Shown piece by piece: positions 1 through 49,963 of a DNA stretch of 64,000 bases (position 1 is the stretch's first letter; every line of letters begins with the position of its first letter). Below the pieces are notes generated by a model. That model did no database searches. It was not told the DNA's origin and worked only from the letters and a program-made list of their open reading frames with translations. The stretch lies in NCBI GenBank assembly GCA_044892505.1, contig CM097882.1, forward strand, positions 312,790,001 through 312,854,000, in the 5' to 3' direction. This DNA comes from Schmidtea nova. Lineage: Eukaryota. Made by a program: the position numbers and the translations under genes.

Positions 1-1836
1 CAGAAGTATGATAAATTTGAATTTAAAAATCTGGTTCGTATTTTAACGAAAAGGGAACGCCAGAAAATCTTGAATGCCTTCCCTGCTTTAATACAACTAA
101 TTAAAAAGAAAGAATCACAGAGTAAATATTTTGAAATTAATAAATTTCTTTCGAGCAAAGATTTTAATGTGAATCACTTGAATTTAATTAATTTTGATTA
201 TTTTTTCTATAGAAATTGTAATCTTTGTGTATCTTTAAAATTGTACAACGCTCCTGTCATTTCATCAGCACCAAAACCAGTTGTTTTAAAAACTATTAAA
301 TTAATTGACCATAATATCGTCAAAATAAATTCTGAAATCCCTGACTTTGTTCGAGCTCCAATGTCAATTCGAAGATTTTTATTCAATCTTTCGCACGATC
401 TTTCAAACACTGTTTCCATCAAGGATGAGAAACACAGGGGAAATAAAATAAATAACATTCTTACTTCAATGAAACATAAACAACAATTACCAGATTATTT
501 AATAAAATCAAACATTAAATACGAAAATGGTGAGTTCCTATTATTAGATTTGACTAACGATAAAATCAAATTGAACGACGATAATAACTTGATAAAATCA
601 AATTTTTCTGAACTTACTAGAAGTCAGATTAAAAATCTTTACTATTCTTATCCTTCTCTTAAGGAAGTTTGTTTCGTTGAAAATCTTGAAACAAGATCAT
701 CATCCGTTAGTAAAATTATCGAATCTTTAAAGTTAATTAATGAATTTCCAAAAAATATCATTTTTAAAGAGGGTAAATTTTATCAGTCTGATAAAAGAAC
801 AATCTCACCTAGTAGTTCTCCTGACATAATGTTCAACCTTGGTCTTTTTAATTTAGCTAGTATGAGTAGAAAAGATTGTGAATTAAAATCCATTTTAGAG
901 AAGACTGGTTGTGACTTTAAAATAGTTGAAATAATATTCTACCTCAACTATTTAGGCTTGACTCAATCTTTAGAATTTTGCAAAAATCAAACTTATTCTG
1001 ATTATGTGAGGAATTACGTCTGCAATTGCTGCTTGATAAACTCACTCTGTAGTATTGCTGATGTTGATTCGCTTTCATCTGATGATTTTGAGGGTTGGGC
1101 GACCGAAATTGTTCAGAAAATCCCAGTTTCTTCCTATTACTTCAATAGCTGCCAGGAAAAGCTTTTAAAGCTGAAGCAATGGGACATTTCAACTAAAATC
1201 AAAAGAATCCATAACGTTATTTCACCTGAAATAATATCTTATTTAAATAACTTTCTTGACTCTGTAGACGTAAAATTTCCATCTAAGTCTCAACAACATA
1301 ATATTCTAATTAAATTAATGAAAGCTATCAATGACATTAAAATTTTTGATGACATACACGGAAATAAAGCAAAAAGACTTGTTTACTTTTTGCTAAGAGA
1401 TGCCAAGAAATATTTGAATAAAAATCAACGATTCAGATTATTTGAATCGAGCAATAAATATTGCACTTTAGAGATGGAGAATATAATTTCAGTAATAATT
1501 GAGAACCTTACCAAAGTTACTGACCATGAAGTTACTACTCCTGAAATCACAGTTGAAGAAACGCCAATTGAAATAACTTGTGATCCTGAACCTATCGTCT
1601 TGATTAAGGAAATAAACTGTTTAAAATGTAACAATATCATCGAAAAATGTATTCTTGTTAGAGATGGAACAAACGTCAACATCTGTGAAAGCTGTCTATT
1701 TGACGCAATTACCTTTGAAAAGCCGATTCCTGAAGCTACTAATTCGGATATCGAAGAAAATATAGAAACAAATTGTAAGAAATCTTGTCCAAGACCTAGA
1801 AAAACAGACAAGAAAACATCAACCAAAGCAAAATGA
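1..1836 (+). CDS. ORF1 protein, copy 1 (5'-partial; frame open from base 1, equals aa 267-877 of full copies)
   Basis: Collinear with 8791-10626 of copy 2; the ORF-track start at 70 is only an internal TTG; ends in TGA. Confidence 0.88.
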   Translation, partial: QKYDKFEFKNLVRILTKRERQKILNAFPALIQLIKKKESQSKYFEINKFLSSKDFNVNHLNLINFDYFFYRNCNLCVSLKLYNAPVISSAPKPVVLKTIKLIDHNIVKINSEIPDFVRAPMSIRRFLFNLSHDLSNTVSIKDEKHRGNKINNILTSMKHKQQLPDYLIKSNIKYENGEFLLLDLTNDKIKLNDDNNLIKSNFSELTRSQIKNLYYSYPSLKEVCFVENLETRSSSVSKIIESLKLINEFPKNIIFKEGKFYQSDKRTISPSSSPDIMFNLGLFNLASMSRKDCELKSILEKTGCDFKIVEIIFYLNYLGLTQSLEFCKNQTYSDYVRNYVCNCCLINSLCSIADVDSLSSDDFEGWATEIVQKIPVSSYYFNSCQEKLLKLKQWDISTKIKRIHNVISPEIISYLNNFLDSVDVKFPSKSQQHNILIKLMKAINDIKIFDDIHGNKAKRLVYFLLRDAKKYLNKNQRFRLFESSNKYCTLEMENIISVIIENLTKVTDHEVTTPEITVEETPIEITCDPEPIVLIKEINCLKCNNIIEKCILVRDGTNVNICESCLFDAITFEKPIPEATNSDIEENIETNCKKSCPRPRKTDKKTSTKAK

Positions 1837-1841
1837 AGATG

Positions 1842-1902
1842 TGTGCCTGCATCAGCTCAATCGTCTGCCATTCCCTCTAATGAGACTGATGCAGAGAGCA
1901 CA
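1842..1902 (+). promoter_or_regulatory. Predicted RNA stem-loop 5 nt downstream of the ORF1 UGA (candidate readthrough stimulator); present in all 8 copies
   Basis: TGTGC/GCACA (1842-46/1898-1902), CTGCATCAG/CTGATGCAG (1847-55/1886-94) and CTCA/TGAG (1856-59/1881-84) give 18 bp with a 21-nt loop. Also at 10632, 19940, 27982, 36619, 44999, 52873, 60747. Confidence 0.6.
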
Positions 1903-4900
1903 ACTAAAAATAATATTTCAACTATCGACAATCGTGATCCTGAAGTGTGGTTTTCTGATAATGATATTGATTGGTATCTTGAAAACCACATTGATAATCC
2001 AATGCATGGATATATTAAATGCTTTATAGTAAATATCATCTGTTCTAACATCACAGAAGATATTGTTGAAATTCCACCATCTATTAGCAATGCTGAAATT
2101 GTATTTTGTCCACTCAACATTAACAATTCGCACTGGATTCTTTTTGTTTATAGTAAGAAAATGTTATCTTCTTACTTTATTGACCCAATCCTTGCAAACA
2201 GACAAAAGCCAATCAATAAACAAATGGCTCAGAGAATTAACCTAAAACTGAATAGATTTTTTAATCTAAATATATCTGTGTCCCGACATCCACACAAACA
2301 TCTTGAATATCAAAATAACAGCTTTGATTGTGGCCCATTTACGTGTGCTTATGCTGTGATTATCAGTAAAGATTTGAACAGCTTTCCAAATGGGTTCATA
2401 GAGAAAATTCGTACCAGTGTGCATGAAAATCAAAATCGTATGCAAATAACCGAATCCACCTTATTCGCTGGTACTAACTCCAAGATGGACATGACCAAAA
2501 TAAATATCAAGAAAGCCCTTGCAAAAAAGAAAGTCATCACCAACACCTCAGATATGACCAAAGTATTGAACACTCAAAAACCGTGTGTGTCATCAATAAT
2601 TAGTAAATATTACGAAAGTAATTCTAAAATAACAGTCTTATCTGCCGAACTAACTTTAAACCTAATTGCACAAAATACCTCCTTCATAGCTGATAATGTC
2701 ACTTTCAAGCAGTTCAAAGGAATCGATCATGTTATAAGTATCATTCCTAAATTTAACGATTGGTGTCTCTTTGTCTATTCGAATAAACTTGACAGGAGCT
2801 ACATGTTCGACTTCAATTATCGAAACATTGATGAAAGGCTAATTGAAATTGGTGAAAAGATAACTGAATATCTGAATCAATTCACTCTTGTTTCTAAAAT
2901 AAAATTCACACCTCATCATAGAATTTCTCATCCAACATTTCATTCTTACGATGATCAATATTTTGCAAGTTCTTTTATTGTATTTTTTGAGAAACTTGTC
3001 TTTGAAAGAATACTGGACAATGATAAGGTTTATGACTCATTAAGTGCTCTAAAATATCAGTCTTGTAAAGATCTTTCTCCTAGCCTAAGTTTCATTAATG
3101 GTAAAATATCCGACAAAATTATTGAGGAATATTTTGCTAGCCTAAACTTATCGACCAAATATATTCTTCTAAACACAACAATGTGTACTGCGCTTTCAGA
3201 TGATTGCACTGAATACTTGAAAGACTTTGTAAACATTGAGTGCATGATGAAGGCTACTATAATCTTTGTAATCATTTCTCCTCCAAGAGCCAACGACTTG
3301 CTCATGGTTATTGATTACGACGCTGATGAGCACTATTTATTAAGCCCAGTCACTAATGACTTGTTCGTTATGACTGAAGGATTCTGCTATAAATTACTAA
3401 TTAAAATTAATGAGATTAGAGAGAGCACAGGACGTTCCTTGAAATCGCGTAATTGTCGACATGACGTTAAAGGTTCTGGCTTATTTAGTAGGTTATTAAT
3501 CTGTGCCTTTATTAAATATTATGCATTTGACCGATCTCTAGAAAATATCAATCTTCATGAAATTGGCAAAATTATCTACTCACTTGTGCCATTGGTTGAT
3601 AAAAATGATAATGCTGAGGAAGAAAGACGACTAAAATCAAAAGCTGTAAACTCTTTAAAACTAAATTTAAAACAGCGAATAGAAAAAGCCAATAATCTTA
3701 TAATTTCACTTGAACACGCCAGTATTGATGAAATCATAAGTGGCATTCTTTCAAATATTCCTCGTCTTAAAGATTTGAACACCGATCACATTCGTACACC
3801 ATATTTAGGTACTAAAATAGAAAAAGCTAGAAAATTCAAAAATTCCACTGAATTTCTGTCAAACATGAAAAAGACTGTGTATAGGATTTTGGGTAACAAC
3901 ACAGAATCAATTGCCCCTCCTTATCAGGAAATTATTGACACTTTCAGTCATCCTGATACATTACCTAGAAATTGGGAAAACATCTTAAAATTCACTAAGA
4001 GTTCTAAATATAGTCTTGAATTAAATCCAATGACACCTAAAGAAATCCTTTCAAGTCTTTGCAAAGCTGACAACACTTCTCCAGGTCTTGATAATGTTTG
4101 TTATAAAGATCTTTTGTTATTAGACCCTGAATGTAAATTGCTAGCTTTTCTGTACAATAAAATCCTAAAATTAGACATTATTCCTACAAGTTGGAAATCA
4201 TTTAAAACCATACTAATCCCCAAACCAGATAAAAATGGCCAATATCATAAAATATATTCTTGGCGACCAATTGCCTTATTATCTGTCATTTACAAAGTCT
4301 TCGCTTCAGTTTTGGCAAATCGTCTAAGCTTATGGATAAGAAATAATTCCATGTTACACATTGGCCAAAAGGGTGGTTCGGAGTACGAAGGATGTATTGA
4401 ACACAACTCTATTCTTTCTGCTATCGTCGAACATTCAAAATACAGCAAGTCTTCACCTTTAACGATAGCTTGGCTAGACATCAAAGATGCCTTCGGAAGT
4501 GTTCCACATGACTACATGTGGACACTGTTAAAACACATAAATGTTAGTGATAGGTTTGTAGGAATTTTAAAACTGCTCTATACTGATACAAGCTCGTTTT
4601 ATTGTTGCAATAAAATGCAGACACCGGATATTCCAATAAAGAAAGGAGTTAAACAAGGTTGTCCGATCTCAATGATATTGTTTGCAATAGCTATTAACCC
4701 AGTACTTGAGTCTATTAATCTATCAAACGTTAATCCTTTTACGATTGGAACATCTCCGGTACAGGTGTTGGCTTATGCGGATGATATCGCACTTATCGCG
4801 ACAAATACCTCTGATCTGCAAATACTCATAAACGTTGCTGTAAACACCGCTAAAACAATTGGATTTGAATATCGTCCAGAAAAGTGCGCTTATATGCAAT

Positions 4901-6453
4901 ACCCTAAAATAGAAACTGTAAGCGAGATTTCTGTCAACAACGTTCTTATAAAAAAGATTGCAACAAATGAATTTTACCAATACTTGGGAGTACCAATAGG
5001 TGACAATAATGATCAAAGTCCCTATGAAATTCTAAGCAAAGTAATTGAAGACACAAAGAAAATAGCAAATTCTGATCTTTACGGCTGGCAAAAACTTAAA
5101 GCGTATAAGGTCTTTCTGCATTCTCGCTTGATTTTTCCATTTAGAACTAGGGAAATCAAAACAAGTTCTTTAGCTGATTCGAGTAAAAATTCAAAATTAA
5201 ATGTAAATAATACGAGTATTTTGAGGAGTCATCTTAGAAAAATATTGCACTTGCCACACTACTCTGAGATTAGCTATTTTTATAATTCTACTGAAAACGG
5301 CGGTGCAGGCTGCATAGACTTACTTGACGAGTATCATACACAGACAATCGTGTACTTTTTCCGTTTGTTAACATCAACGTGCGAATATTCGAAAAAGATA
5401 AATACTGACTCGCTTTTATTTGTCACAAGTCCGAGACTCGGAATCAAAAATCCAGTTCTTAAACAAAGTTTAGAATGGATAAATGGAAAAGAGAGCAAGA
5501 AAAACAACAGTGGTTGCAAAACTCGATTTTATCGGTTGCGATCATCCATTGCTTACTTTTCTAAAGTTCACAACATTAAATTGTTATTTGAAACAGTGAA
5601 AGGGAATCCTTCTATCCGTATAACCACTACACTTAAGGGAACACGTATATTATTACCAACATTAAGAAAAGCCTTGTCAATGATTTTACATTCAGCTCTC
5701 CAGGATTCGTATCTCGAGAAATGGGAGAATAGCAATCATAATAATCTGCTTGTATCTGCGATTAAACTCTGTCCACTTGTCAACAAGCTTATTTTCCGCA
5801 GTGATTTGACAGAATTTGAATGGAGATTCGTCCATCGAGCAAGAACGAATACATTATCAATATTTGCGAAGCCATATAAAACTGGCGAAAATCGTCTTTG
5901 TCGTAGATGTAAGCTTGAAGACGAGACTTTATCACACGTTCTTCAAACTTGTAAAATGAACAAATCTTTGGCAACTAGTCGACATAACGCTTGCTTAGAA
6001 AAAATAAAAAGCGAGTTGAAAGATCCAAACTTGTTAGTTGTTGCGGATCATAAATGTTCCCTAGTACCGACATCAACTGAACGCGTTGATTTAATAATAA
6101 CCAATAATGATAAAAAGACCATATTATTGGTAGACATGAAATGCCCAATCGATTCGGTGCCCAACTTTGACTTGGCTGATAAAAAAAACATAGAAAAGTA
6201 TGATAAACTAAAATCAGAAATTAAAATAGCCAAACCCGATTATAAAGTTGAGTTGTTTACCTGCATCATAGGCTCATTAGGATCCATTGAAATTAAAACA
6301 CCTGATCTTTTAGTAAAAATGGGAGTAAAAGAAAATAAAGTAAAACGTCTGATGAAAGAGTGTGCAATTAGCAATATTGCGCACTCGGCCAAAATTTGGT
6401 ACTTTCATACCAATGGCTTTCTTCCAGATAATATAAGACAAACTTGTAAATAA
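1843..6453 (+). CDS. ORF2 polyprotein: Ulp1/C48-like protease + 2 degenerate repeats + reverse transcriptase + CCHC zinc knuckle + restriction-like endonuclease (copy 1)
   Basis: Protease motifs WFSDNDIDWYL, NSHWIL (H97), FIDP (D114), QNNSFDCG (C163). RT motifs SPGLDN, WRPIALL, LDIKDAFGSVPH, GVKQGCPIS, YADD (4774-4785), YLGV. CRRC-x8-H-x4-C at 5899-5952, then RHN and RVD...VDMK. Track start is GTG; the frame is open from 1837, in frame with ORF1. Confidence 0.95.
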   Translation: MPASAQSSAIPSNETDAESTTKNNISTIDNRDPEVWFSDNDIDWYLENHIDNPMHGYIKCFIVNIICSNITEDIVEIPPSISNAEIVFCPLNINNSHWILFVYSKKMLSSYFIDPILANRQKPINKQMAQRINLKLNRFFNLNISVSRHPHKHLEYQNNSFDCGPFTCAYAVIISKDLNSFPNGFIEKIRTSVHENQNRMQITESTLFAGTNSKMDMTKINIKKALAKKKVITNTSDMTKVLNTQKPCVSSIISKYYESNSKITVLSAELTLNLIAQNTSFIADNVTFKQFKGIDHVISIIPKFNDWCLFVYSNKLDRSYMFDFNYRNIDERLIEIGEKITEYLNQFTLVSKIKFTPHHRISHPTFHSYDDQYFASSFIVFFEKLVFERILDNDKVYDSLSALKYQSCKDLSPSLSFINGKISDKIIEEYFASLNLSTKYILLNTTMCTALSDDCTEYLKDFVNIECMMKATIIFVIISPPRANDLLMVIDYDADEHYLLSPVTNDLFVMTEGFCYKLLIKINEIRESTGRSLKSRNCRHDVKGSGLFSRLLICAFIKYYAFDRSLENINLHEIGKIIYSLVPLVDKNDNAEEERRLKSKAVNSLKLNLKQRIEKANNLIISLEHASIDEIISGILSNIPRLKDLNTDHIRTPYLGTKIEKARKFKNSTEFLSNMKKTVYRILGNNTESIAPPYQEIIDTFSHPDTLPRNWENILKFTKSSKYSLELNPMTPKEILSSLCKADNTSPGLDNVCYKDLLLLDPECKLLAFLYNKILKLDIIPTSWKSFKTILIPKPDKNGQYHKIYSWRPIALLSVIYKVFASVLANRLSLWIRNNSMLHIGQKGGSEYEGCIEHNSILSAIVEHSKYSKSSPLTIAWLDIKDAFGSVPHDYMWTLLKHINVSDRFVGILKLLYTDTSSFYCCNKMQTPDIPIKKGVKQGCPISMILFAIAINPVLESINLSNVNPFTIGTSPVQVLAYADDIALIATNTSDLQILINVAVNTAKTIGFEYRPEKCAYMQYPKIETVSEISVNNVLIKKIATNEFYQYLGVPIGDNNDQSPYEILSKVIEDTKKIANSDLYGWQKLKAYKVFLHSRLIFPFRTREIKTSSLADSSKNSKLNVNNTSILRSHLRKILHLPHYSEISYFYNSTENGGAGCIDLLDEYHTQTIVYFFRLLTSTCEYSKKINTDSLLFVTSPRLGIKNPVLKQSLEWINGKESKKNNSGCKTRFYRLRSSIAYFSKVHNIKLLFETVKGNPSIRITTTLKGTRILLPTLRKALSMILHSALQDSYLEKWENSNHNNLLVSAIKLCPLVNKLIFRSDLTEFEWRFVHRARTNTLSIFAKPYKTGENRLCRRCKLEDETLSHVLQTCKMNKSLATSRHNACLEKIKSELKDPNLLVVADHKCSLVPTSTERVDLIITNNDKKTILLVDMKCPIDSVPNFDLADKKNIEKYDKLKSEIKIAKPDYKVELFTCIIGSLGSIEIKTPDLLVKMGVKENKVKRLMKECAISNIAHSAKIWYFHTNGFLPDNIRQTCK

Positions 6454-6458
6454 ATAAT

Positions 6459-6472
6459 TATATATATATATA
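6459..6472 (+). repeat. (TA)n microsatellite at start of element 3' UTR
   Basis: (TA)7 here; 7,7,8,6,6,6 units in copies 2-7. Confidence 0.8.
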
Positions 6473-6807
6473 AATATTTGCTTTTTAAACTCTGTAAATA
6501 AAATTTAAAGTAAATATTTTGTAAAGTAATTTTTGTATTAAATATCAAATCTTTTTAATCTGATAAATTGTCTTTGAGAGTTATTAAATTGGGAGACCAA
6601 GTATTCTGCAACGTATGTCACTTATTCTAGACTTATCAACTTCAAAAGAATACAGTCGCAAAGCTGGATGACGAAATCCAAAGAACCAGAAACTTCCATT
6701 CAGATTGAACAATTATATTTTGACTGTGATTGTTTAGGCACTAATCCATGTTGATTAGATAATCTGTAAAAAAATATGTCAAACTTGTTATATTTAATAA
6801 ATGTTTA

Positions 6808-6862
6808 TTATCACGTCTGCCTAACACGCAGAAGGTCCCCTGTTCGATCCCGGGTCGAACCA
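6808..6862 (+). pseudogene. 3' fragment (nt 19-73) of tRNA-Val(AAC) split by copy 1
   Basis: Starts TTATCACG directly after the element end; lacks A box; carries G52T at 6841. Confidence 0.9.
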
Positions 6863-7042
6863 AATTTTTCTCAATTCATTATTTGACTTTTATTATATTT
6901 GCAACTCTTTTTTTAATTCATAACGCAATTTTGTTGTTGAATTCTCTACTTTGTACATAAATTTTATTCAAGTGAATTCAGTACATTTTGTCAAGGTAAT
7001 TCGAAAATCAAACATGCACAACAATTGTTAGTTGAAACTGTC

Positions 7043-7115
7043 GGTTCGATGGTGTAGCGGTTATCACGTCTGCCTAACACGCAGAAGGTCCCCGGTTCGA
7101 TCCCGGGTCGAACCA
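7043..7115 (+). tRNA. tRNA-Val(AAC)
   Basis: 73 nt; acceptor stem GGTTCGA/TCGAACC, anticodon arm TCTGC-CTAACAC-GCAGA, T arm CCCGG-TTCGATC-CCGGG; A and B boxes present. AAC anticodon (I34) is a eukaryotic type. Confidence 0.96.
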
Positions 7116-7117
7116 AA

Positions 7118-7122
7118 TTTTT
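7118..7122 (+). terminator. RNA polymerase III terminator (T5), repeated after every tRNA unit
   Basis: TTTTT begins 3 nt after discriminator A73 in each unit. Confidence 0.75.
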
Positions 7123-7295
7123 CTCAATTCATTATTTGACTTTTATTATATTTGCAACTCTTTTTTTAATTCATAACGCAATTTTGTTGTTGAATTCTCT
7201 ACTTTGTACATAAATTTTATTCAAGTGAATTCAGTACATTTTGTCAAGGTAATTCGAAAATCAAACATGCACAACAATTGTTAGTTGAAACTGTC

Positions 7296-7357
7296 GGTTC
7301 GATGGTGGTGTCTGCCTAACACGCAGAAGGTCCCCGGTTCGATCCCGGGTCGAACCA
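7296..7357 (+). pseudogene. tRNA-Val(AAC) with D-arm deletion
   Basis: nt 13-26 (TAGCGGTTATCACG) replaced by GTG, net -11 bp; next unit starts 242 bp later instead of 253. Confidence 0.88.
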
Positions 7358-7537
7358 AATTTTTCTCAATTCATTATTTGACTTTTATTATATTTGCAAC
7401 TCTTTTTTTAATTCATAACGCAATTTTGTTGTTGAATTCTCTACTTTGTACATAAATTTTATTCAAGTGAATTCAGTACATTTTGTCAAGGTAATTCGAA
7501 AATCAAACATGCACAACAATTGTTAGTTGAAACTGTC

Positions 7538-7610
7538 GGTTCGATGGTGTAGCGGTTATCACGTCTGCCTAACACGCAGAAGGTCCCCGGTTCGATCCCG
7601 GGTCGAACCA
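7538..7610 (+). tRNA. tRNA-Val(AAC)
   Basis: Identical to 7043-7115. Confidence 0.96.
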
Positions 7611-7790
7611 AATTTTTCTCAATTCATTATTTGACTTTTATTATATTTGCAACTCTTTTTTTAATTCATAACGCAATTTTGTTGTTGAATTCTCTACTTT
7701 GTACATAAATTTTATTCAAGTGAATTCAGTACATTTTGTCAAGGTAATTCGAAAATCAAACATGCACAACAATTGTTAGTTGAAACTGTC

Positions 7791-7863
7791 GGTTCGATGG
7801 TGTAGCGGTTATCACGTCTGCCTAACACGCAGAAGGTCCCCGGTTCGATCCCGGGTCGAACCA
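7791..7863 (+). tRNA. tRNA-Val(AAC)
   Basis: Identical to 7043-7115. Confidence 0.96.
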
Positions 7864-7992
7864 AATTTTTCTCAATTCATTATTTGACTTTTATTATATT
7901 TGCAACTCTTTTTTTAATTCATAACGCAATTTTGTTGTTGAATTCTCTACTTTGTACATAAATTTTATTCAAGTGAATTCTTTCAAGGTTCG

Positions 7993-10626
7993 ATGACTCA
8001 ATCACCTGCTGCTCAGTCAACTGCTGCTGATGTGATGACTCAGTCTATTGGAAATCAGTCAACTGTGACGAAGAAATATGAATTAGAAAACATTCTCAAG
8101 TATCAAATTTCCAGTTTGCAATGTTTTCAATCGATTTTGGATTATTTTTCGCAACTAAATGGTGGAAATCTCGCTACTGCCTCAGTTCTTTCTGATGCGA
8201 ATGCAAGTCAACGGAGTTCTTTCGATCAAGGATCTAAAATTTCTCAAAACCAATCTGATAATATGCCACTTTCTTATGCTGATATTGAGACTAAATTCAC
8301 TAAATCAAAGGATTTACTGATTGTCAAGCGCCTGGATTCATTGGAGTCTCAATTTATGAATATGGCTGAAAAGTTAGATTATTTGGTTTCTTTTTTTAAT
8401 GGCTCTGTTGATGATTTATCAGATTTTCCTAAAGTAAATGAAAATAATTTAAATAATAATCCTTTCAATAAAAATAAAGTTTTTGATATCAAAGATAAAT
8501 TAATTGTAAATAATGTAGTTTTAGATAAATCAAATATTTCAGAATTTATTGAAAATAATATTGCTAAAATTCCTAATAGTTTAATTGATGTAAATAATAA
8601 AATGTGTAATTCAAATAATAAATTTCTAAATAACCCTAATAAAGAGAATGTTAAACATTTTAATAATCCCAAAGAAACATCTTCAATTGATTTGACTAAC
8701 GATAAAATTATGCCAAATGAAAACATAGAAATAATTATTAAAAATAATAAAAAATCTGTTAAAATTATAGAACCTAATAAAACAACTAAACAGAAGTATG
8801 ATAAATTTGAATTTAAAAATCTGGTTCGTATTTTAACGAAAAGGGAACGCCAGAAAATCTTGAATGCCTTCCCTGCTTTAATACAACTAATTAAAAAGAA
8901 AGAATCACAGAGTAAATATTTTGAAATTAATAAATTTCTTTCGAGCAAAGATTTTAATGTGAATCACTTGAATTTAATTAATTTTGATTATTTTTTCTAT
9001 AGAAATTGTAATCTTTGTGTATCTTTAAAATTGAACAACGCTCCTGTCATTTCATCAGCACCAAAACCTGTTGTTTTAAAAACTATTAAATTAATTGACC
9101 ATAATATCGTCAAAATAAATTCTGAAATCCCTGACTTTGTTCGAGCTCCAATGTCAATTCGAAGATTTTTATTCAATCTTTCGCACGATCTTTCAAACAC
9201 TGTTTCCATCAAGGATGAGAAACACAGGGGAAATAAAATAAATAACATTCTTACTTCAATGAAACATAAACAACAATTACCAGATTATTTAATAAAATCA
9301 AACATTAAATACGAAAATGGTGAGTTCTTATTATTAGATTTGACTAACGATAAAATCAAATTGAACGACGATAATAACTTGATAAAATCAAATTTTTCTG
9401 AACTTACTAGAAGTCAGATTAAAAATCTTTACTATTCTTATCCTTCTCTTAAGGAAGTTTGTTTCGTTGAAAATCTTGAAACAAGATCATCATCCGTTAG
9501 TAAAATTATCGAATCTTTAAAGTTAATTAATGAATTTCCAAAAAATATCATTTTTAAAGAGGGTAAATTTTATCAGTCTGATAAAAGAACAATCTCACCT
9601 AGTAGTTCTCCTGACATAATGTTCAACCTTGGTCTTTTTAATTTGGCTAGTATGAGTAGAAAAGATTGTGAATTAAAATCCATTTTAGAGAAGACTGGTT
9701 GTGACTTTAAAATAGTTGAAATAATATTCTACCTCAACTATTTAGGCTTGACTCAATCTTTAGAATTTTGCAAAAATCAAACTTATTCTGATTATGTGAG
9801 GAATTACGTCTGTAATTGCTGCTTGATAAACTCACTCTGTAGTATTGCTGATGTTGATTCGCTTTCATCTGAAGATTTTGAGGGTTGGGCGACCGAAATT
9901 GTTCAGAAAATCCCAGTTTCTTCCTATTACTTCAATAGCTGCCAGGAAAAGCTTTTAAAGCTGAAGCAATGGGACATTTCAACTAAAATCAAAAGAATCC
10001 ATAACGTTATTTCACCTGAAATAATATCTTATTTAAATAACTTTCTTGACTCTGTAGACGTAAAATTTCCATCTAAGTCTCAACAACATAATATTCTAAT
10101 TAAATTAATGAAAGCTATCAATGACATTAAAATTTTTGATGACATACACGGAAATAAAGCAAAAAGAATTGTTTACTTTTTGCTAAGAGATGCCAAGAAA
10201 TATTTGAATAAAAATCAACGATTCAGATTATTTGAATCGAGCAATAAATATTGCACTTTAGAGATGGAGAATATAATTTCAGTAATAATTGAGAACCTTA
10301 CCAAAGTTACTGGCCATGAAGTTACTACTCCTGAAATCACAGTTGAAGAAACGCCAATTGAAATAACTTGTGATCCTGAACCTATCGTCTTGATTAAGGA
10401 AATAAACTGTTTAAAATGTAACAATATCATCGAAAAATGCATTCTTGTTAGAGATGGAACAAACGTCAACATCTGTGAAAGCTGTCTATTTGACGCAATT
10501 ACCTTTGAAAAGCCGATTCCTGAAGCTACTAATTCGGATATCGAAGAAAATATAGAAACAAATTGTAAGAAATCTTGTCCAAGACCTAGAAAAACAGACA
10601 AGAAAACATCAACCAAAGCAAAATGA
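7993..10626 (+). CDS. ORF1 protein (877 aa): predicted N-terminal coiled-coil segment, Asn/Lys-rich low-complexity region, C-terminal C4 zinc finger, basic tail
   Basis: ATG start, intact in all copies; CLKC-x18-CESC at 10408-10485; no recognisable family otherwise. Confidence 0.88.
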   Translation: MTQSPAAQSTAADVMTQSIGNQSTVTKKYELENILKYQISSLQCFQSILDYFSQLNGGNLATASVLSDANASQRSSFDQGSKISQNQSDNMPLSYADIETKFTKSKDLLIVKRLDSLESQFMNMAEKLDYLVSFFNGSVDDLSDFPKVNENNLNNNPFNKNKVFDIKDKLIVNNVVLDKSNISEFIENNIAKIPNSLIDVNNKMCNSNNKFLNNPNKENVKHFNNPKETSSIDLTNDKIMPNENIEIIIKNNKKSVKIIEPNKTTKQKYDKFEFKNLVRILTKRERQKILNAFPALIQLIKKKESQSKYFEINKFLSSKDFNVNHLNLINFDYFFYRNCNLCVSLKLNNAPVISSAPKPVVLKTIKLIDHNIVKINSEIPDFVRAPMSIRRFLFNLSHDLSNTVSIKDEKHRGNKINNILTSMKHKQQLPDYLIKSNIKYENGEFLLLDLTNDKIKLNDDNNLIKSNFSELTRSQIKNLYYSYPSLKEVCFVENLETRSSSVSKIIESLKLINEFPKNIIFKEGKFYQSDKRTISPSSSPDIMFNLGLFNLASMSRKDCELKSILEKTGCDFKIVEIIFYLNYLGLTQSLEFCKNQTYSDYVRNYVCNCCLINSLCSIADVDSLSSEDFEGWATEIVQKIPVSSYYFNSCQEKLLKLKQWDISTKIKRIHNVISPEIISYLNNFLDSVDVKFPSKSQQHNILIKLMKAINDIKIFDDIHGNKAKRIVYFLLRDAKKYLNKNQRFRLFESSNKYCTLEMENIISVIIENLTKVTGHEVTTPEITVEETPIEITCDPEPIVLIKEINCLKCNNIIEKCILVRDGTNVNICESCLFDAITFEKPIPEATNSDIEENIETNCKKSCPRPRKTDKKTSTKAK

Positions 10627-10632
10627 AGATGT

Positions 10633-13600
10633 GTGCCTGCATCAGCTCAATCGTCTGCCATTCCCTCTAATGAGACTGATGCAGAGAGCACAACTAAAAA
10701 TAATATTTCAACTATCGACAATCGTGATCCTGAAGTGTGGTTTTCTGATAATGATATTGATTGGTATCTTGAAAACCACATTGATAATCCAATGCATGGA
10801 TATATTAAATGCTTTATAGTAAATATCATCTGTTCTAACATCACAGAAGATATTGTTGAAATTCCACCATCTATTAGCAATGCTGAAATTGTATTTTGTC
10901 CACTCAACATTAACAATTCGCACTGGATTCTTTTTGTTTATAGTAAGAAAATGTTATCTTCTTACTTTATTGACCCAATCCTTGCAAACAGACAAAAGCC
11001 AATCAATAAACAAATGGCTCAGAGAATTAACCTAAAACTGAATAGATTTTTTAATCTAAATATATCTGTGTCCCGACATCCACACAAACATCTTGAATAT
11101 CAAAATAACAGCTTTGATTGTGGCCCATTTACGTGTGCTTATGCTGTGATTATCAGTAAAGATTTGAACAGCTTTCCAAATGGGTTCATAGAGAAAATTC
11201 GTAGCAGTGTGCATGAAAATCAAAATCGTATGCAAATAACCGAATCCACCTTATTCGCTGGTACTAACTCCAAGATGGACATGACCAAAATAAATATCAA
11301 GAAAGCCCTTGCAAAAAAGAAAGTTATCACCAACACCTCAGATATGACCAAAGTATTGAACACTCAAAAACCGTGTGTGTCATCAATAATTAGTAAATAT
11401 TACGAAAGTAATTCTAAAATAACAGTCTTATCTGCTGAACTAACTTTAAACCTAATTGCACAAAATACCTCCTTCATAGCTGATAATGTCACTTTCAAGC
11501 AGTTCAAAGGAATCGATCATGTTATAAGCATCATTCCTAAATTTAACGATTGGTGTCTCTTTGTCTATTCGAATAAACTTGACAGGAGCTACATGTTCGA
11601 CTTCAATTATCGAAACATTGATGAAAGGCTAATTGAAATTGGTGAAAAGATAACTGAATATCTGAATCAATTCACTCTTGTTTCTAAAATAAAATTCACA
11701 CCTCATCATAGAATTTCTCATCCAACATTTCATTCTTACGATGATCAATATTTTGCAAGTTCTTTTATTGTATTTTTTGAGAAACTTGTCTTTGAAAGAA
11801 TACTGGACAATGATAAGGTTTATGACTCATTAAGTGCTCTAAAATATCAGTCTTGTAAAGATCTTTCTCCTAGCCTAAGTTTCATTAATGGTAAAATATC
11901 CGACAAAATTATTGAGGAATATTTTGCTAGCCTAAACTTATCGACCAAATATATTCTTCTAAACACAACAATGTGTACTGCGCTTTCAGATGATTGCACT
12001 GAATACTTGAAAGACTTTGTAAACATTGAGTGCATGATGAAGGCTACTATAATCTTTGTAATCATTTCTCCTCCAAGAGCCAACGACTTGCTCATGGTTA
12101 TTGATTACGACGCTGATGAGCACTATTTATTAAGCCCAGTCACTAATGACTTGTTCGTTATGACTGAAGGATTCTGCTATAAATTACTAATTAAAATTAA
12201 TGAGATAAGAGAGAGCACAGGACGTTCCTTGAAATCGCGTAATTGTCGACATGACGTTAAAGGTTCTGGCTTATTTAGTAGGTTATTAATCTGTGCCTTT
12301 ATTAAATATTATGCATTTGACCGATCTCTAGAAAATATCAATCTTCATGAAATTGGCAAAATTATCTACTCACTTGTGCCATTGGTTGATAAAAATGATA
12401 ATGCTGAGGAAGAAAGACGACTAAAATCAAAAGCTGTAAACTCTTTAAAACTAAATTTAAAACAGCGAATAGAAAAAGCCAATAATCTTATAATTTCACT
12501 TGAACACGCCAGTATTGATGAAATCATAAGTGGCATTCTTTCAAATATTCCTCGTCTTAAAGATTTGAACACCGATCACATTCGTACACCATATTTAGGT
12601 TCTAAAATAGAAAAAGCTAGAAAATTCAAAAATTCCACTGAGTTTCTGTCAAACATGAAAAAGACTGTGTATAGGATTTTGGGTAACAACACAGAATCAA
12701 TTGCACCTCCTTATCAGGAAATTATTGACACTTTCAGTCATCCTGATACATTACCTAGAAATTGGGAAAACATCTTAAAATTCACTAAGAGTTCTAAAAC
12801 TAGTCTTGAATTAAATCCAATGACACCTAAAGAAATCCTTTCAAGTCTTTGCAAAGCTGACAACACTTCTCCAGGTCTTGATAATGTTTGTTATAAAGAT
12901 CTTTTGTTATTAGACCCTGAATGTAAATTGCTAGCTTTTCTGTACAATAAAATCCTAAAATTAGACATTATTCCTACAAGTTGGAAATCATTTAAAACCA
13001 TACTAATCCCCAAACCAGATAAAAATGGCCAATATCATAAAATATATTCTTGGCGACCAATTGCCTTATTATCTGTCATTTACAAAGTCTTCGCTTCAGT
13101 TTTGGCAAATCGTCTAAGCTTATGGATAAGAAATAATTCCATGTTACACATTGGCCAAAAGGGTGGTTCGGAGTACGAAGGATGTATTGAACACAACTCT
13201 ATTCTTTCTGCTATCGTCGAACATTCAAAATACAGCAAGTCTTCACCTTTAACGATAGCTTGGCTAGACATCAAAGATGCCTTCGGAAGTGTTCCACATG
13301 ACTACATGTGGACACTGTTAAAACACATAAATGTTAGTGATAGGTTTGTAGGAATTTTAAAACTGCTCTATACTGATACAAGCTCGTTTTATTGTTGCAA
13401 TAAAATGCAGACACCGGATATTCCAATAAAAAAAGGAGTTAAACAAGGTTGTCCGATCTCAATGATATTGTTTGCAATAGCTATTAACCCAGTACTTGAG
13501 TCTATTAATCTATCAAACGTTAATCCTTTTACGATTGGAACATCTCCGGTACAGGTGTTGGCTTATGCGGATGATATCGCACTTATCGCGACAAATACCT

Positions 13601-15243
13601 CTGATCTGCAAATACTCATAAACGTTGCTGTAAACACCGCTAAAACAATTGGATTTGAATATCGTCCAGAAAAGTGCGCTTATATGCAAAACCCTAAAAT
13701 AGAAACTGTAAGCGAGATTTCTGTCAACAACGTTCTTATAAAAAAGATTGCAACAAATGAATTTTACCAATACTTGGGAGTACCAATAGGTGACAATAAT
13801 GATCAAAGTCCCTATGAAATTCTAAGCAAAGTAATTGAAGACACAAAGAAAATAGCAAATTCTGATCTTTACGGCTGGCAAAAACTTAAAGCGTATAAGG
13901 TCTTTCTGCATTCTCGCTTGATTTTTCCATTTAGAACTAGGGAAATCAAAACAAGTTCTTTAGCTGATTCGAGTAAAAATTCAAAATTAAATGTAAATAA
14001 TACGAGTATTTTGAGGAGTCATCTTAGAAAAATATTGCACTTGCCACACTACTCTGAGATTAGCTATTTTTATAATTCTACTGAAAACGGCGGTGCAGGC
14101 TGCATAGACTTACTTGACGAGTATCATACACAGACAATCGTGTACTTTTTCCGTTTGTTAACATCAACGTGCGAATATTCGAAAAAGATAAATACTGACT
14201 CGCTTTTATTTGTCACAAGTCCGAGACTCGGAATCAAAAATCCAGTTCTTAAACAAAGTTTAGAATGGATAAATGGAAAAGAGAGCAAGAAAAACAACAG
14301 TGGTTGCAAAACTCGATTTTATCGGTTGCGATCATCCATTGCTTACTTTTCTAAAGTTCACAACATTAAATTGTTATTTGAAACAGTGAAAGGGAATCCT
14401 TCTATCCGTATAACCACTACACTTAAGGGAACACGTATATTATTACCAACATTAAGAAAAGCCTTGTCAATGATTTTACATTCAGCTCTCCAGGATTCGT
14501 ATCTCGAGAAATGGGAGAATAGCAATCATAATAATCTGCTTGTATCTGCGATTAAACTCTGTCCACTTGTCAACAAGCTTATTTTCCGCAGTGATTTGAC
14601 AGAATTTGAATGGAGATTCGTCCATCGAGCAAGAACGAATACATTATCAATATTTGCGAAGCCATATAAAACTGGCGAAAATCGTCTTTGTCGTAGATGT
14701 AAGCTTGAAGACGAGACTTTATCACACGTTCTTCAAACTTGTAAAATGAACAAATCTTTGGCAACTAGTCGACATAACGCTTGCTTAGAAAAAATAAAAA
14801 GCGAGTTGAAAGATCCAAACTTGTTAGTTGTTGCGGATCATAAATGTTCCCTAGTACCGACATCAACTGAACGCGTTGATTTAATAATAACCAATAATGA
14901 TAAAAAGACCATATTATTGGTAGACATGAAATGCCCAATCGATTCGGTGCCCAACTTTGACTTGGCTGATAAAAAAAACATAGAAAAGTATGATAAACTA
15001 AAATCGGAAATTAAAATAGCCAAACCCGATTATAAAGTTGAGTTGTTTACCTGCATCATAGGCTCATTAGGATCCATTGAAATTAAAACACCTGATCTTT
15101 TAGTAAAAATGGGCGTAAAAGAAAATAAAGTAAAACGTCTGATGAAAGAGTGTGCAATTAGCAATATTGCGCACTCGGCCAAAATTTGGTACTTTCATAC
15201 CAATGGCTTTCTTCCAGATAATATAAGACAAACTTTTAAATAA
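10633..15243 (+). CDS. ORF2 protease/RT/RLE polyprotein, copy 2
   Basis: Same motifs as copy 1; intact 1536 codons. Confidence 0.95.
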   Translation: MPASAQSSAIPSNETDAESTTKNNISTIDNRDPEVWFSDNDIDWYLENHIDNPMHGYIKCFIVNIICSNITEDIVEIPPSISNAEIVFCPLNINNSHWILFVYSKKMLSSYFIDPILANRQKPINKQMAQRINLKLNRFFNLNISVSRHPHKHLEYQNNSFDCGPFTCAYAVIISKDLNSFPNGFIEKIRSSVHENQNRMQITESTLFAGTNSKMDMTKINIKKALAKKKVITNTSDMTKVLNTQKPCVSSIISKYYESNSKITVLSAELTLNLIAQNTSFIADNVTFKQFKGIDHVISIIPKFNDWCLFVYSNKLDRSYMFDFNYRNIDERLIEIGEKITEYLNQFTLVSKIKFTPHHRISHPTFHSYDDQYFASSFIVFFEKLVFERILDNDKVYDSLSALKYQSCKDLSPSLSFINGKISDKIIEEYFASLNLSTKYILLNTTMCTALSDDCTEYLKDFVNIECMMKATIIFVIISPPRANDLLMVIDYDADEHYLLSPVTNDLFVMTEGFCYKLLIKINEIRESTGRSLKSRNCRHDVKGSGLFSRLLICAFIKYYAFDRSLENINLHEIGKIIYSLVPLVDKNDNAEEERRLKSKAVNSLKLNLKQRIEKANNLIISLEHASIDEIISGILSNIPRLKDLNTDHIRTPYLGSKIEKARKFKNSTEFLSNMKKTVYRILGNNTESIAPPYQEIIDTFSHPDTLPRNWENILKFTKSSKTSLELNPMTPKEILSSLCKADNTSPGLDNVCYKDLLLLDPECKLLAFLYNKILKLDIIPTSWKSFKTILIPKPDKNGQYHKIYSWRPIALLSVIYKVFASVLANRLSLWIRNNSMLHIGQKGGSEYEGCIEHNSILSAIVEHSKYSKSSPLTIAWLDIKDAFGSVPHDYMWTLLKHINVSDRFVGILKLLYTDTSSFYCCNKMQTPDIPIKKGVKQGCPISMILFAIAINPVLESINLSNVNPFTIGTSPVQVLAYADDIALIATNTSDLQILINVAVNTAKTIGFEYRPEKCAYMQNPKIETVSEISVNNVLIKKIATNEFYQYLGVPIGDNNDQSPYEILSKVIEDTKKIANSDLYGWQKLKAYKVFLHSRLIFPFRTREIKTSSLADSSKNSKLNVNNTSILRSHLRKILHLPHYSEISYFYNSTENGGAGCIDLLDEYHTQTIVYFFRLLTSTCEYSKKINTDSLLFVTSPRLGIKNPVLKQSLEWINGKESKKNNSGCKTRFYRLRSSIAYFSKVHNIKLLFETVKGNPSIRITTTLKGTRILLPTLRKALSMILHSALQDSYLEKWENSNHNNLLVSAIKLCPLVNKLIFRSDLTEFEWRFVHRARTNTLSIFAKPYKTGENRLCRRCKLEDETLSHVLQTCKMNKSLATSRHNACLEKIKSELKDPNLLVVADHKCSLVPTSTERVDLIITNNDKKTILLVDMKCPIDSVPNFDLADKKNIEKYDKLKSEIKIAKPDYKVELFTCIIGSLGSIEIKTPDLLVKMGVKENKVKRLMKECAISNIAHSAKIWYFHTNGFLPDNIRQTFK

Positions 15244-15598
15244 ATAATTATATATATATATAAATATTTGCTTTTTAAACTCTGTAAATAAAAATTAAAG
15301 TAAATATTTTGTAAAGTAATTTTTGTATTAAATATCCAATCTTTTTAATCTGATAAATTGTCTTTGAGAGTTATTAAATTGGGAGACCAAGTATTCTGCA
15401 ACGTATGTCACTTATTCTAGACTTATCAACTTCAAAAGAATACAGTCGCAAAGCTGGATGACGAAATCCAAAGAACCAGAAACTTCCATTCAGATTGAAC
15501 AATTATATTTTGACTGTGATTGTTTAGGGACTAATCCATGTTGATTAGATAATCTGTAAAAAAAATATGTCAAACTTGTTATATTTAATAAATGTTTA

Positions 15599-17171: not shown

Positions 17172-17300
17172 AATTTTTCTCAATTCATTATTTGACTTTT
17201 ATTATATTTGCAACTCTTTTTTTAATTCATAACGCAATTTTGTTGTTGAATTCTCTACTTTGTACATAAATTTTATTCAAGTGAATTCTTTCAAGGTTCG

Positions 17301-25213: not shown

Positions 25214-25342
25214 AATTTTTCTCAATTCATTATTTGACTTTTATTATATTTGCAACTCTTTTTTTAATTCATAACGCAATTTTGTTGTTGAATTCTCTAC
25301 TTTGTACATAAATTTTATTCAAGTGAATTCTTTCAAGGTTCG

Positions 25343-33944: not shown

Positions 33945-33975
33945 GGTTCGATGGTGTAGCGGTTATCACGTCTGC
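33945..33975 (+). pseudogene. 5' half (nt 1-31) of tRNA-Val split by copy 5; last 13 nt = TSD
   Basis: GGTTCG...TTATCACGTCTGC followed by element TTCGATG. Confidence 0.9.
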
Positions 33976-33979
33976 TTCG

Positions 33980-36613
33980 ATGACTCAATCACCTGCTGCT
34001 CAGTCAACTGCTGCTGATGTAATGACTCAGTCTATTGCAAATCAGTCAACTGTGACGAAGCAATATGAATTAGAAAACATTCTCAAATATCAAATTTCCA
34101 GTTTGCAATGCTTTCAATCGATTTTGGATTATTTTTCTCAACTAAATGGTGGAAATCTCGCTACTGCCTCAGTTCTATCTGATGCGAATGCAAGTCAACG
34201 GAGTTCTTTCGATCAAGGATCTAAAATTTCTCAAAACCAATCTGATAATATGCCACTTTCTTATGCTGATATTGAGACTAAATTCACTAAATCAAAGGAT
34301 TTACTGATTGTCAAGCGCCTGGATTCATTGGAGTCTCAATTTATGAATATGGCTGAAAAGTTAGATTATTTGGTTTCTTTTTTTAATGGCTCTGTTGATG
34401 ATTTATCAGATTTTCCTAAAGTAAATGAAAATAATTTAAATAATAATCCTTTCAATAAAAATAAAGTTTTTGATATCAAAGATAAATTAATTGTAAATAA
34501 TGTAGTTTTAGATAAATCAAATATTTCAGAATTTATTGAAAATAATATTGCTAAAATTCCTAATAGTTTAATTGATGTAAATAATAAAATGTGTAATTCA
34601 AATAATAAATTTCTAAATAACCCTAATAAAGAGAATGTTAAACATTTTAATAATCCCAAAGAAACATCTTCAATTGATTTGACTAACGATAAAATTATGC
34701 CAAATGAAAACATAGAAATAATTATTAAAAATAATAAAAAATCTGTTAAAATTATAGAACCTAATAAAACAACTAAACAGAAGTATGATAAATTTGAATT
34801 TAAAAATCTGGTTCGTATTTTAACGAAAAGGGAACGCCAGAAAATCTTGAATGCCTTCCCTGCTTTAATACAACTAATTAAAAAGAAAGAATCACAGAGT
34901 AAATATTTTGAAATTAATAAATTTCTTTCGAGCAAAGATTTTAATGTGAATCACTTGAATTTAATTAATTTTGATTATTTTTTCTATAGAAATTGTAATC
35001 TTTGTGTATCTTTAAAATTGTACAACGCTCCTGTCATTTCATCAGCACCAAAACCAGTTGTTTTAAAAACTATTAAATTAATTGACCATAATATCGTCAA
35101 AATAAATTCTGAAATCCCTGACTTTGTTCGAGCTCCAATGTCAATTCGAAGATTTTTATTCAATCTTTCGCACGATCTTTCAAACACTGTTTCCATCAAG
35201 GATGAGAAACACAGGGGAAATAAAATAAATAACATTCTTACTTCAATGAAACATAAACAACAATTACCAGATTATTTAATAAAATCAAACATTAAATACA
35301 AAAATGGTGAGTTCCTATTATTAGATTTGACTAACGATAAAATCAAATTGAACGACGATAATAACTTGATAAAATCAAATTTTTCTGAACTTACTAGAAG
35401 TCAGATTAAAAATCTTTACTATTCTTATCCTTCTCTTAAGGAAGTTTGTTTCGTTGAAAATCTTGAAACAAGATCATCATCCGTTAGTAAAATTATCGAA
35501 TCTTTAAAGTTAATTAATGAATTTCCAAAAAATATCATTTTTAAAGAGGGTAAATTTTATCAGTCTGATAAAAGAACAATCTCACCTAGTAGTTCTCCTG
35601 ACATAATGTTCAACCTTGGTCTTTTTAATTTAGCTAGTATGAGTAGAAAAGATTGTGAATTAAAATCCATTTTAGAGAAGACTGGTTGTGACTTTAAAAT
35701 AGTTGAAATAATATTCTACCTCAACTATTTAGGCTTGACTCAATCTTTAGAATTTTGCAAAAATCAAACTTATTCTGATTATGTGAGGAATTACGTCTGC
35801 AATTGCTGCTTGATAAACTCACTCTGTAGTATTGCTGATGTTGATTCGCTTTCATCTGATGATTTTGAGGGTTGGGCGACCGAAATTGTTCAGAAAATCC
35901 CAGTTTCTTCCTATTACTTCAATAGCTGCCAGGAAAAGCTTTTAAAGCTGAAGCAATGGGACATTTCAACTAAAATCAAAAGAATCCATAACGTTATTTC
36001 ACCTGAAATAATATCTTATTTAAATAACTTTCTTGACTCTGTAGACGTAAAATTTCCATCTAAGTCTCAACAACATAATATTCTAATTAAATTAATGAAA
36101 GCTATCAATGACATTAAAATCTTTGATGACATACACGGAAATAAAGCAAAAAGACTTGTTTACTTTTTGCTAAGAGATGCCAAGAAATATTTGAATAAAA
36201 ATCAACGATTCAGATTATTTGAATCGAGCAATAAATATTGCACTTCAGAGATGGAGAATATAATTTCAGTAATAATTGAGAACCTTACCAAAGTTACTGA
36301 CCATGAAGTTACTACTCCTGAAATCACAGTTGAAGAAACGCCAATTGAAATAACTTGTGATCCTGAACCTATCGTCTTGATTAAGGAAATAAACTGTTTA
36401 AAATGTAACAATATCATCGAAAAATGTATTCTTGTTAGAGATGGAACAAACGTCAACATCTGTGAAAGCTGTCTATTTGACGCAATTACCTTTGAAAAGC
36501 CGATTCCTGAAGCTACTAATTCGGATATCGAAGAAAATATAGAAACAAATAGTAAGAAATCTTGTCCAAGACCTAGAAAAACAGACAAGAAAACATTAAC
36601 CAAAGCAAAATGA
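33980..36613 (+). CDS. ORF1 protein, copy 5
   Basis: 877 aa intact. Confidence 0.88.
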   Translation: MTQSPAAQSTAADVMTQSIANQSTVTKQYELENILKYQISSLQCFQSILDYFSQLNGGNLATASVLSDANASQRSSFDQGSKISQNQSDNMPLSYADIETKFTKSKDLLIVKRLDSLESQFMNMAEKLDYLVSFFNGSVDDLSDFPKVNENNLNNNPFNKNKVFDIKDKLIVNNVVLDKSNISEFIENNIAKIPNSLIDVNNKMCNSNNKFLNNPNKENVKHFNNPKETSSIDLTNDKIMPNENIEIIIKNNKKSVKIIEPNKTTKQKYDKFEFKNLVRILTKRERQKILNAFPALIQLIKKKESQSKYFEINKFLSSKDFNVNHLNLINFDYFFYRNCNLCVSLKLYNAPVISSAPKPVVLKTIKLIDHNIVKINSEIPDFVRAPMSIRRFLFNLSHDLSNTVSIKDEKHRGNKINNILTSMKHKQQLPDYLIKSNIKYKNGEFLLLDLTNDKIKLNDDNNLIKSNFSELTRSQIKNLYYSYPSLKEVCFVENLETRSSSVSKIIESLKLINEFPKNIIFKEGKFYQSDKRTISPSSSPDIMFNLGLFNLASMSRKDCELKSILEKTGCDFKIVEIIFYLNYLGLTQSLEFCKNQTYSDYVRNYVCNCCLINSLCSIADVDSLSSDDFEGWATEIVQKIPVSSYYFNSCQEKLLKLKQWDISTKIKRIHNVISPEIISYLNNFLDSVDVKFPSKSQQHNILIKLMKAINDIKIFDDIHGNKAKRLVYFLLRDAKKYLNKNQRFRLFESSNKYCTSEMENIISVIIENLTKVTDHEVTTPEITVEETPIEITCDPEPIVLIKEINCLKCNNIIEKCILVRDGTNVNICESCLFDAITFEKPIPEATNSDIEENIETNSKKSCPRPRKTDKKTLTKAK

Positions 36614-36619
36614 AGATGT

Positions 36620-41230: not shown

Positions 41231-41584
41231 ATAATTATATATATATAAATATTTGCTTTTTAAACTCTGTAAATAAAATTTAAAGTAAATATTTTGTAAA
41301 GTAATTTTTGTATTAAATATCCAATCTTTTTAATCTGATAAATTGTCTTTGAGAGTTATTAAATTGGGAGACCAAGTATTCTGCAACGTATGTCACTTAT
41401 TCTAGACTTATCAACTTCAAAAGAATACAGTCGCAAAGCTGGATGACGAAATCCAAAGAACCAGAAACTTCCATTCAGATTGAACAATTATATTTTGACT
41501 GTGATTGTTTAGGGACTAATCCATGTTGATTAGATAATCTGTTAAAAAAAATATGTCAAACTTGTTATATTTAATAAATGTTTA

Positions 41585-42324: not shown

Positions 42325-42355
42325 GGTTCGATGGTGTAGCGGTTATCACGTCTGC
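42325..42355 (+). pseudogene. 5' half (nt 1-31) of tRNA-Val split by copy 6
   Basis: Ends in the TSD, then TTCGATG. Confidence 0.9.
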
Positions 42356-42359
42356 TTCG

Positions 42360-44993: not shown

Positions 44994-44999
44994 AGATGT

Positions 45000-49610: not shown

Positions 49611-49963
49611 ATAATTATATATATATAAATATTTGCTTTTTAAACTCTGTAAATAAAATTTAAAGTAAATATTTTGTAAAGTAATTTTTGTATTAAATAT
49701 CCAATCTTTTTAATCTGATAAATTGTCTTTGAGAGTTATTAAATTGGGAGACCAAGTATTCTGCAACGTATGTCACTTATTCTAGACTTATCAACTTCAA
49801 AAGAATACAGTCGCAAAGCTGGATGACGAAATCCAAAGAACCAGAAACTTCCATTCAGATTGAACAATTATATTTTGACTGTGATTGTTTAGGGACTAAT
49901 CCATGTTGATTAGATAATCTGTAAAAAAAATATGTCAAACTTGTTATATTTAATAAATGTTTA

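Follow-up and report, generated by a model that had tools for sequence, protein, structure and literature searches.

How a second open reading frame is translated when it follows the first in the same frame, behind a single UGA and with no AUG of its own, is the question raised by this locus. The window, a 64,000-nucleotide stretch of Schmidtea nova DNA, holds eight near-identical head-to-tail copies of a 7.6-kb element, six of which are complete, and the positions of its features are collected in Table 1. The element is a tRNA-targeting non-LTR retrotransposon, probably a live one, and its 3' junctions, in all seven cases where they are visible, fall at one and the same base within the tRNA-Val gene, the site-specific insertion into a multicopy RNA gene that characterizes the R5/LIN lineage. 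Low-level readthrough of the UGA is the best single explanation of the shared frame and of the spacing between stop and downstream structure and, in our judgement, a probable one.

Table 1. Features of the element, its junction and its target, with positions in the window
Feature	Position	Strand	Details
ORF1 of copy 1, 3' part	1..1836	+	Full copies 877 aa from ATG, e.g. 7993-10626
Out-of-frame AUGs	1833 and 1839	+	1833 within AUGA overlapping the stop; A at -3 in each; the frame runs to a dead end after 15 or 13 codons, 1833..1880
In-frame UGA	1834..1836	+	Context GCA AAA UGA AGA UGU GUG
Equivalent UGA in other copies	10624, 19932, 27974, 36611, 44991, 52865, 60739
ORF2	1837..6453	+	1538 codons, ends TAA; earliest in-frame ATG at 2002
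Stem-loop	1842-1902	+	9-bp core 1847-1855/1886-1894 (from +14) on a basal 5-bp helix (from +9), topped by 4 bp and a loop of 21 nt
Stem-loop starts in other copies	10632, 19940, 27982, 36619, 44999, 52873, 60747
In-frame GUG	1843..1845	+	At +10, taking the stop's U as +1; U at -3 and C at +4, a poor context
Ulp1/SENP-like cysteine protease	1936..2421	+	W38, H99, D116, Q159, C165; Pfam Peptidase_C48 29.9 bits (cut-off 20.7)
Ala-Gly, candidate self-cleavage site	2467..2472	+	Gly-Gly at this position in close relatives, 44-49 residues past the catalytic Cys
Reverse transcriptase (RT) domain	4216..4995	+	YADD at 980; Pfam RVT_1 E 1.5e-29
CCHC zinc knuckle, RHN and D...DxK of restriction-like endonuclease	5899..6141	+	Motif scan
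3' UTR	6454..6807	+	Last ~38 nt like published LIN25_SM 3' ends (PMC4640811, S6 Fig; compared by eye, AT-rich, unscored)
tRNA-Val(AAC) gene array, insertion target	6808..7988	+	253-bp tandem repeat
Complete copy 2, reference copy	7989..15598	+	7610 bp
Later copy starts	17297, 25339, 33976, 42356, 50230, 58104

The junction is the same throughout the window: AAATGAAGATGTGTGCCT occurs eight times with no mismatch, against 0.01 occurrences expected from shuffles. The earlier note, made from the letters alone, had described two ORFs in frame across one TGA, and this is borne out in 8/8 copies, where the ORFs abut directly and one in-frame stop joins them. The length of about 2416 aa that it gave for the fusion is also correct, the 877-aa ORF1 and the 1538 codons of ORF2 giving 2416 aa. 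The first in-frame ATG does lie inside the protease and past W38, but its label M54 takes the GTG as the first codon; numbered from the stop, the ATG is codon 56. No slippery heptamer is present near the junction, and no Rfam family matches there. The short out-of-frame ORF closes at 1878-1882 in UAAUG, a SART1-like stop-start whose AUG leads into a dead-end frame of 49 codons.

Folding bears out the hairpin of 5+9+4 bp that had been drawn soon after the stop. Its energy is -25.4 kcal/mol (z -4.25), a stability reached by none of 200 shuffles, and the z is the best among 376 80-nt windows of the element, with a raw energy rank of 3/753. Only one of 1000 synonymous recodings of the hairpin peptide folds as well, and because the other 999 fold worse, the hairpin is not explained by the peptide that it encodes. 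In each of three larger contexts the 9-bp core pairs with a probability of 0.98 or more, while the basal 5-bp helix can slip by two bases between two registers (1842-46 or 1840-44 against 1898-1902). A stable structure therefore starts at +9 (base) or +14 (core), inside the range of about +9 to +16 expected of a readthrough signal. A pseudoknot or other long-range partner for the loop was sought and rejected: the best duplex reached -18.8 kcal/mol, and on a sparser scan 2/30 shuffled loops surpassed it. That the stems are unchanged in every copy, with a single variant in the loop of copy 8, is right as an observation but fails as evidence of conservation, since the copies, which differ by 0-60 substitutions per pair, are too alike for unchanged stems to carry weight; 0.54 variable sites are expected in the 36 stem bases, and stems would be invariant by chance with P(0)=0.59.

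Both ORFs are nonetheless under purifying selection among the copies. Single-base changes (four multi-base codon changes being excluded) number 31 synonymous and 27 non-synonymous in ORF2 (omega 0.32, p 7e-6) and 17 synonymous and 26 non-synonymous in ORF1 (omega 0.55, p 0.03), and neither nonsense changes nor frameshifts were found among the copies in either ORF. The selection on ORF2 argues that the UGA is not the lesion of a dead copy.

ORF2 has the domain content of the NeSL clade, namely an R2-group RT, for which the best relatives with a solved structure are R2 proteins, a C-terminal CCHC and PD-(D/E)xK-like motif, and a Ulp1-like protease N-terminal to the RT. The protease profile matches yeast Ulp1 (1euv) with E 1e-8, and W38, H99, D116, Q159 and C165, to which we presumptively assign the catalytic roles known from the Ulp1 family, are invariant in 6/6 aligned proteins. 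Beyond the active domain the protease fold recurs twice in weak, degenerate form, at ORF2 residues of about 305-365 and 426-527 (about 2749-2931 and 3112-3417), and second copies of the fold are clearer in the relatives P0007 and P0008. ORF1 is less readily placed. It carries a CxxC-CxxC pair at residues 806 and 828, has no Pfam match exceeding the cut-off, and has no homologue among 7999 candidates of 482-1535 aa (query residues 280-877) or among the 150 ORF2 matches listed; an Atlas search gave no match for ORF1, nor for ORF2 30-700. A stop-free antisense frame of 194 codons lies inside ORF1 (8379-8963, minus strand) in 6/7 copies containing the region; it has no Pfam match and is probably incidental.

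The ORF2 domains, the tRNA-gene target and the LIN25_SM-like last ~38 nt make membership of the planarian R5/LIN lineage (NeSL clade) probable, the tree described below being made up of unnamed proteins only. R5 has two ORFs. LIN25_SM, LIN15_SM and R5 likewise combine a restriction-like endonuclease with an RT and insert into multicopy RNA genes including tRNA genes, but the targets listed in PMC4640811 are 28S, tRNA-Arg, tRNA-Glu and tRNA-Pro rather than tRNA-Val(AAC), and the junction of our element is unlike the LIN25 junction. The passages of PMC4640811 consulted state nothing on the translation mode of ORF2. The nematode elements NeSL-1 and Utopia-1_TSP also place a Ulp1-like protease N-terminal to RT and endonuclease; Utopia families, however, generally encode one protein, whereas here a stop and a hairpin part the 877-aa ORF1 from the protease.

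Relatives of ORF2 were sought among 1.84 billion representatives, and the closest of the 150 matches listed are P0001 (52% identity), P0003 (43%), P0045 (41%, protease region only), P0002 (38%) and P0004 (36%); a word search by alignment gave P0001 as the sole close relative among 13 matches. Scans of bacterial and archaeal genomes yielded no loci of relatives. In a quick tree without bootstrap, built from 72 of the top 75 matches plus the query (P0045 and P0090, which have no RT, stand outside it), the query and the four RT-bearing close relatives form one group with support 99. None of the five closest relatives is fused to an ORF1. All five reach the protease N-terminus, with a called start 28-70 residues before the WF motif, and the stretch before that motif is stop-free in each (joint chance 4e-8), and so it is translated through. 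The called first residue in the five corresponds to the GUG of Table 1. The P0001 alignment begins at that codon and keeps the stem-arm residues PAS and DAEST at equal spacing, although 12/12 of the residues between them differ. Within the wider clade of 26 rows (support 96), a protease is detectable in 16 proteins besides the query, and nine give no protease match; the called Met comes too late for a whole protease in 11 of the 16 and just before the domain in four. Such called starts fit a lineage whose ORF2 usually has no AUG, and gene-caller choices and broken copies could contribute. The sixteenth, P0016 (29% identity), encodes the fused architecture as a single 2421-aa ORF, the N-terminal part of which has no similarity to this ORF1.

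Conservation of the stem in the relatives was assessed at the protein level, by how far their amino acids force base pairing. When the N-terminal helix was ranked within its own protein, the query stood at 2/502, P0001 at 2/502, P0004 at 1/503 and P0045 at 1/114, so that three of the five relatives fit the stem better at the N-terminus than in 99% of their own windows; P0002 ranked only 41/502 and P0003 317/438, which counts against readthrough. Shuffling of the first 30 residues gave p values of 0.006 (query), 0.004 (P0001), 0.002 (P0004), 0.126 (P0045), 0.106 (P0002) and 0.65 (P0003), and thus only P0001 and P0004 passed; among 133 control N-termini, 14 gave p<=0.05 and four p<=0.02. These two tests were used because a control on absolute scores was confounded by composition (median 10.1 bits, with several controls above the test proteins). 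In one register, picked by eye after the sequences had been seen, 9-12 consecutive positions are pairable in P0001, P0002, P0004 and P0045, with P0004 forcing C-G in place of the query's U-A and P0002 forcing G-U in place of its G-C, and P0003 has two impossible pairs. These exchanges suggest compensatory change in the relatives' stems. On this reading of the proteins the stem has good support in two relatives, suggestive support in two more and none in the fifth. The hairpin is a real feature and probably conserved among relatives, whose ORF2 may likewise follow an in-frame stop.

In the readthrough model, most ribosomes would halt at the UGA and release the ORF1 protein, while a minority, slowed by the hairpin at the ribosome mRNA entrance, would decode the UGA as an amino acid and go on to complete a polyprotein of 2416 aa (ORF1-protease-RT-endonuclease). 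This the protease may afterwards cut right behind itself, freeing the RT-endonuclease part. The spacing has close parallels among viruses, since Table 1 of PMC13517186 places the structures of MoMLV, VEEV, SINV, CHIKV and CTFV at starts of +9 to +16, and the junction hexanucleotide UGAAGA is given in the same paper for the gag-pro junction of SSSV (salmon swim bladder sarcoma virus). MoMLV and SSSV resemble the element in having an in-frame stop directly before the protease and a 3' structure at about +12. The element differs from both in being non-LTR, in its cysteine protease, in an ORF1 that is not recognisably Gag, and in a simple stem-loop with no pseudoknot partner found. Alphaviruses and coltiviruses share a UGA followed from +9 to +16 by an extended stem-loop, which spans 78-177 nt against 61 nt here; their context is UGA-CUA or UGA-CGG, whereas UGA-AGA is not a type II readthrough context. 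Termination is favoured by a purine at +4 (PMC13517186), and the A at this position predicts a low readthrough efficiency. A further caution comes from Candida Tca2, in which a gag-UGA-pol junction with a predicted 3' structure gave no readthrough in yeast reporters (PMC2194720); a junction of this look can therefore mislead. The readthrough proposed in the earlier note has gained from the relatives' stems, the selection on ORF2, the single ORF of P0016 and the spacing, and has lost in that the eight copies are not independent and that +4 is A.

The main rival is that ORF2 is a separate protein whose synthesis begins at the foot of the hairpin, on a codon that is GUG in the element and GUG or AUG in its relatives, through termination-reinitiation or some other non-canonical start, with the hairpin positioning or holding the ribosome and the protease serving as a leader protease. 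We consider this less likely than readthrough, though it leads the rivals because a start-callable codon stands at the stem base in 5/5 relatives, whereas such codons make up 4% of codons, and because SART1, L1 and R2 provide precedents. In four of the five the codon lies two residues ahead of a conserved Ala, and in the fifth its place is equivalent; an initiation site explains this more simply than readthrough does. Coupling in SART1 requires downstream structure and L1 ORF2 is reached through unconventional reinitiation (PMC5972666), and R2 protein is described as having no need of a Met start (PMC13580325). The interval between ORF1 and the protease, moreover, holds no cleavage-like GG. 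SART1, L1, 2A StopGo, R2 and Tca2 all resemble the element in that a bicistronic RNA gives rise to the product of its downstream ORF, SART1 with a downstream structure and Tca2 with an in-frame UGA and a predicted 3' structure, as here. Unlike the known non-LTR ORF2 strategies, however, the element has no spacer and a continuous reading frame, and the AUGA overlapping its stop opens just a 15-codon frame, so that the stop-start of SART1 is not reproduced. Graded by start-context rules the GUG is poor, and a reinitiating ribosome would first reach two out-of-frame AUGs of better context, both within 10 nt and in the dead-end frame. A ribosome starting at the GUG would also cover 15-17 nt downstream, which is the whole 5' arm, and the stem would have to melt. 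Finally, reinitiation needs no shared frame, which would arise by chance one time in three. GTG reinitiation aided by the hairpin, which had been put forward as the main alternative, is thus weakened by the placement of the GTG in the stem base, by its context and by the adjoining AUGs, while initiation there is still a serious rival.

Production of ORF2 from a separate RNA, through an internal promoter, through cis-splicing by which the stop is lost, or through a spliced leader added in trans that supplies an AUG, is improbable. Flatworm leaders do carry an AUG (PMC9851317), the LIN25-like 3' end points to a probable planarian host, and Tca2 has a minor promoter at its junction (PMC2194720). 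In-frame AG acceptors between stop and protease are, however, limited to two GAG sites within the 3' arm, and their use would leave no need for the open N-terminal stretch that lies upstream and is apparently conserved.

Decoding of the UGA as sense in some other way, by selenocysteine, host reassignment or A-to-I editing to UGG, is very improbable. Selenocysteine sites too can have a stem-loop just 3' of the UGA, and the stop adjoins double-stranded RNA. However, no other in-frame TGA occurs among 2415 codons, against 17 TGG and 57 TGY, which is not the pattern of a code with UGA as sense; no SECIS was found by Rfam to E 10 across copy 2 or by pattern in its last 600 nt; and the 5' G neighbour of the A to be edited disfavours ADAR. 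The remaining reading, that the UGA is a nonsense mutation of a single-ORF element now dead and was amplified together with the array, takes its appeal from near-identical copies and the existence of single-ORF relatives, and is largely refuted by the purifying selection on both ORFs with no further stop or frameshift, by the two kinds of 5' junction, by relatives of 36-52% identity that begin at the same place, and by a strong hairpin exactly there.

Readthrough would deliver a fusion protein, and the earlier note had suggested that the protease might process it. A candidate site exists C-terminal to the protease, but none lies between ORF1 and the protease. Gly-Gly occurs 44-49 residues after the catalytic Cys in 10/20 relatives examined (P0001, P0002, P0004, P0007, P0008, P0012, P0016, P0020, P0045 and P0090), all ten falling among the 11 relatives nearest the element or P0016; the element itself has Ala-Gly, which counts against the model. 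Ulp1-family enzymes cleave after Gly-Gly, and this specificity together with the fixed distance makes the position a candidate for self-cleavage, which would be compatible with either readthrough or initiation. It is also nearly as likely as not that a whole lineage of protease-bearing, RNA-gene-targeting non-LTR elements arrived independently at the retroviral gag-stop-pro-pol organization, in which a conserved hairpin would drive readthrough of a stop directly ahead of the Ulp1-like protease, the Gly-Gly site would serve self-cleavage and P0016 would represent the version without a stop.

Readthrough would here be a known recoding mechanism in an element class for which we found no report of it. 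A survey mostly of titles and abstract openings brought up no account of a non-LTR or NeSL element that uses readthrough, an Entamoeba LINE paper contained nothing on it, and an earlier remark on the arrangement may exist. Translation of the second ORF of non-LTR elements is unsettled, with reinitiation, 2A skipping, frameshifting and non-AUG starts described; if readthrough holds, a structure-stimulated route otherwise known from viruses and retroviruses would be added, gag-pro-pol logic would have been reached convergently with an unrelated protease, and the signal would be a compact 61 nt that reporters can test. If initiation holds instead, a conserved non-AUG start with a hairpin would be likewise little described. 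Wrong annotated starts for this lineage's database proteins would also be implied.

Several further observations concern the copies and their ends. Copies 5 and 6 (33976-41584 and 42356-49963) are 0 substitutions apart, and variants are distributed as a mosaic among the remaining copies; besides retrotransposition, this points to tandem duplication or gene conversion. The 5' junctions are of two types: copies 5-8 have a 13-bp target duplication (33963-33975, 42343-42355, 50217-50229, 58091-58103), and copies 2-4 have eight extra bases and are missing the 5' part of the tRNA gene (7981-7988, 17289-17296, 25331-25338). The 5' UTR is nearly absent, the common 5' end lying only 4 nt before the ORF1 ATG, and the element must therefore be co-transcribed, be trans-spliced or have captured tRNA sequence; the 7-mer at the 5' ends (7989-7995 and equivalents) equals bases 3-9 of the target tRNA-Val gene. 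In the first array, a tRNA-Val copy at about 7296-7357 has an internal deletion and was picked up by neither tRNA scan. Near the 3' end of ORF2 (about 15148-15176 in copy 2) lies another strong hairpin, of 11 bp, which is among the most stable windows of the element and is possibly a recognition signal for the RT.
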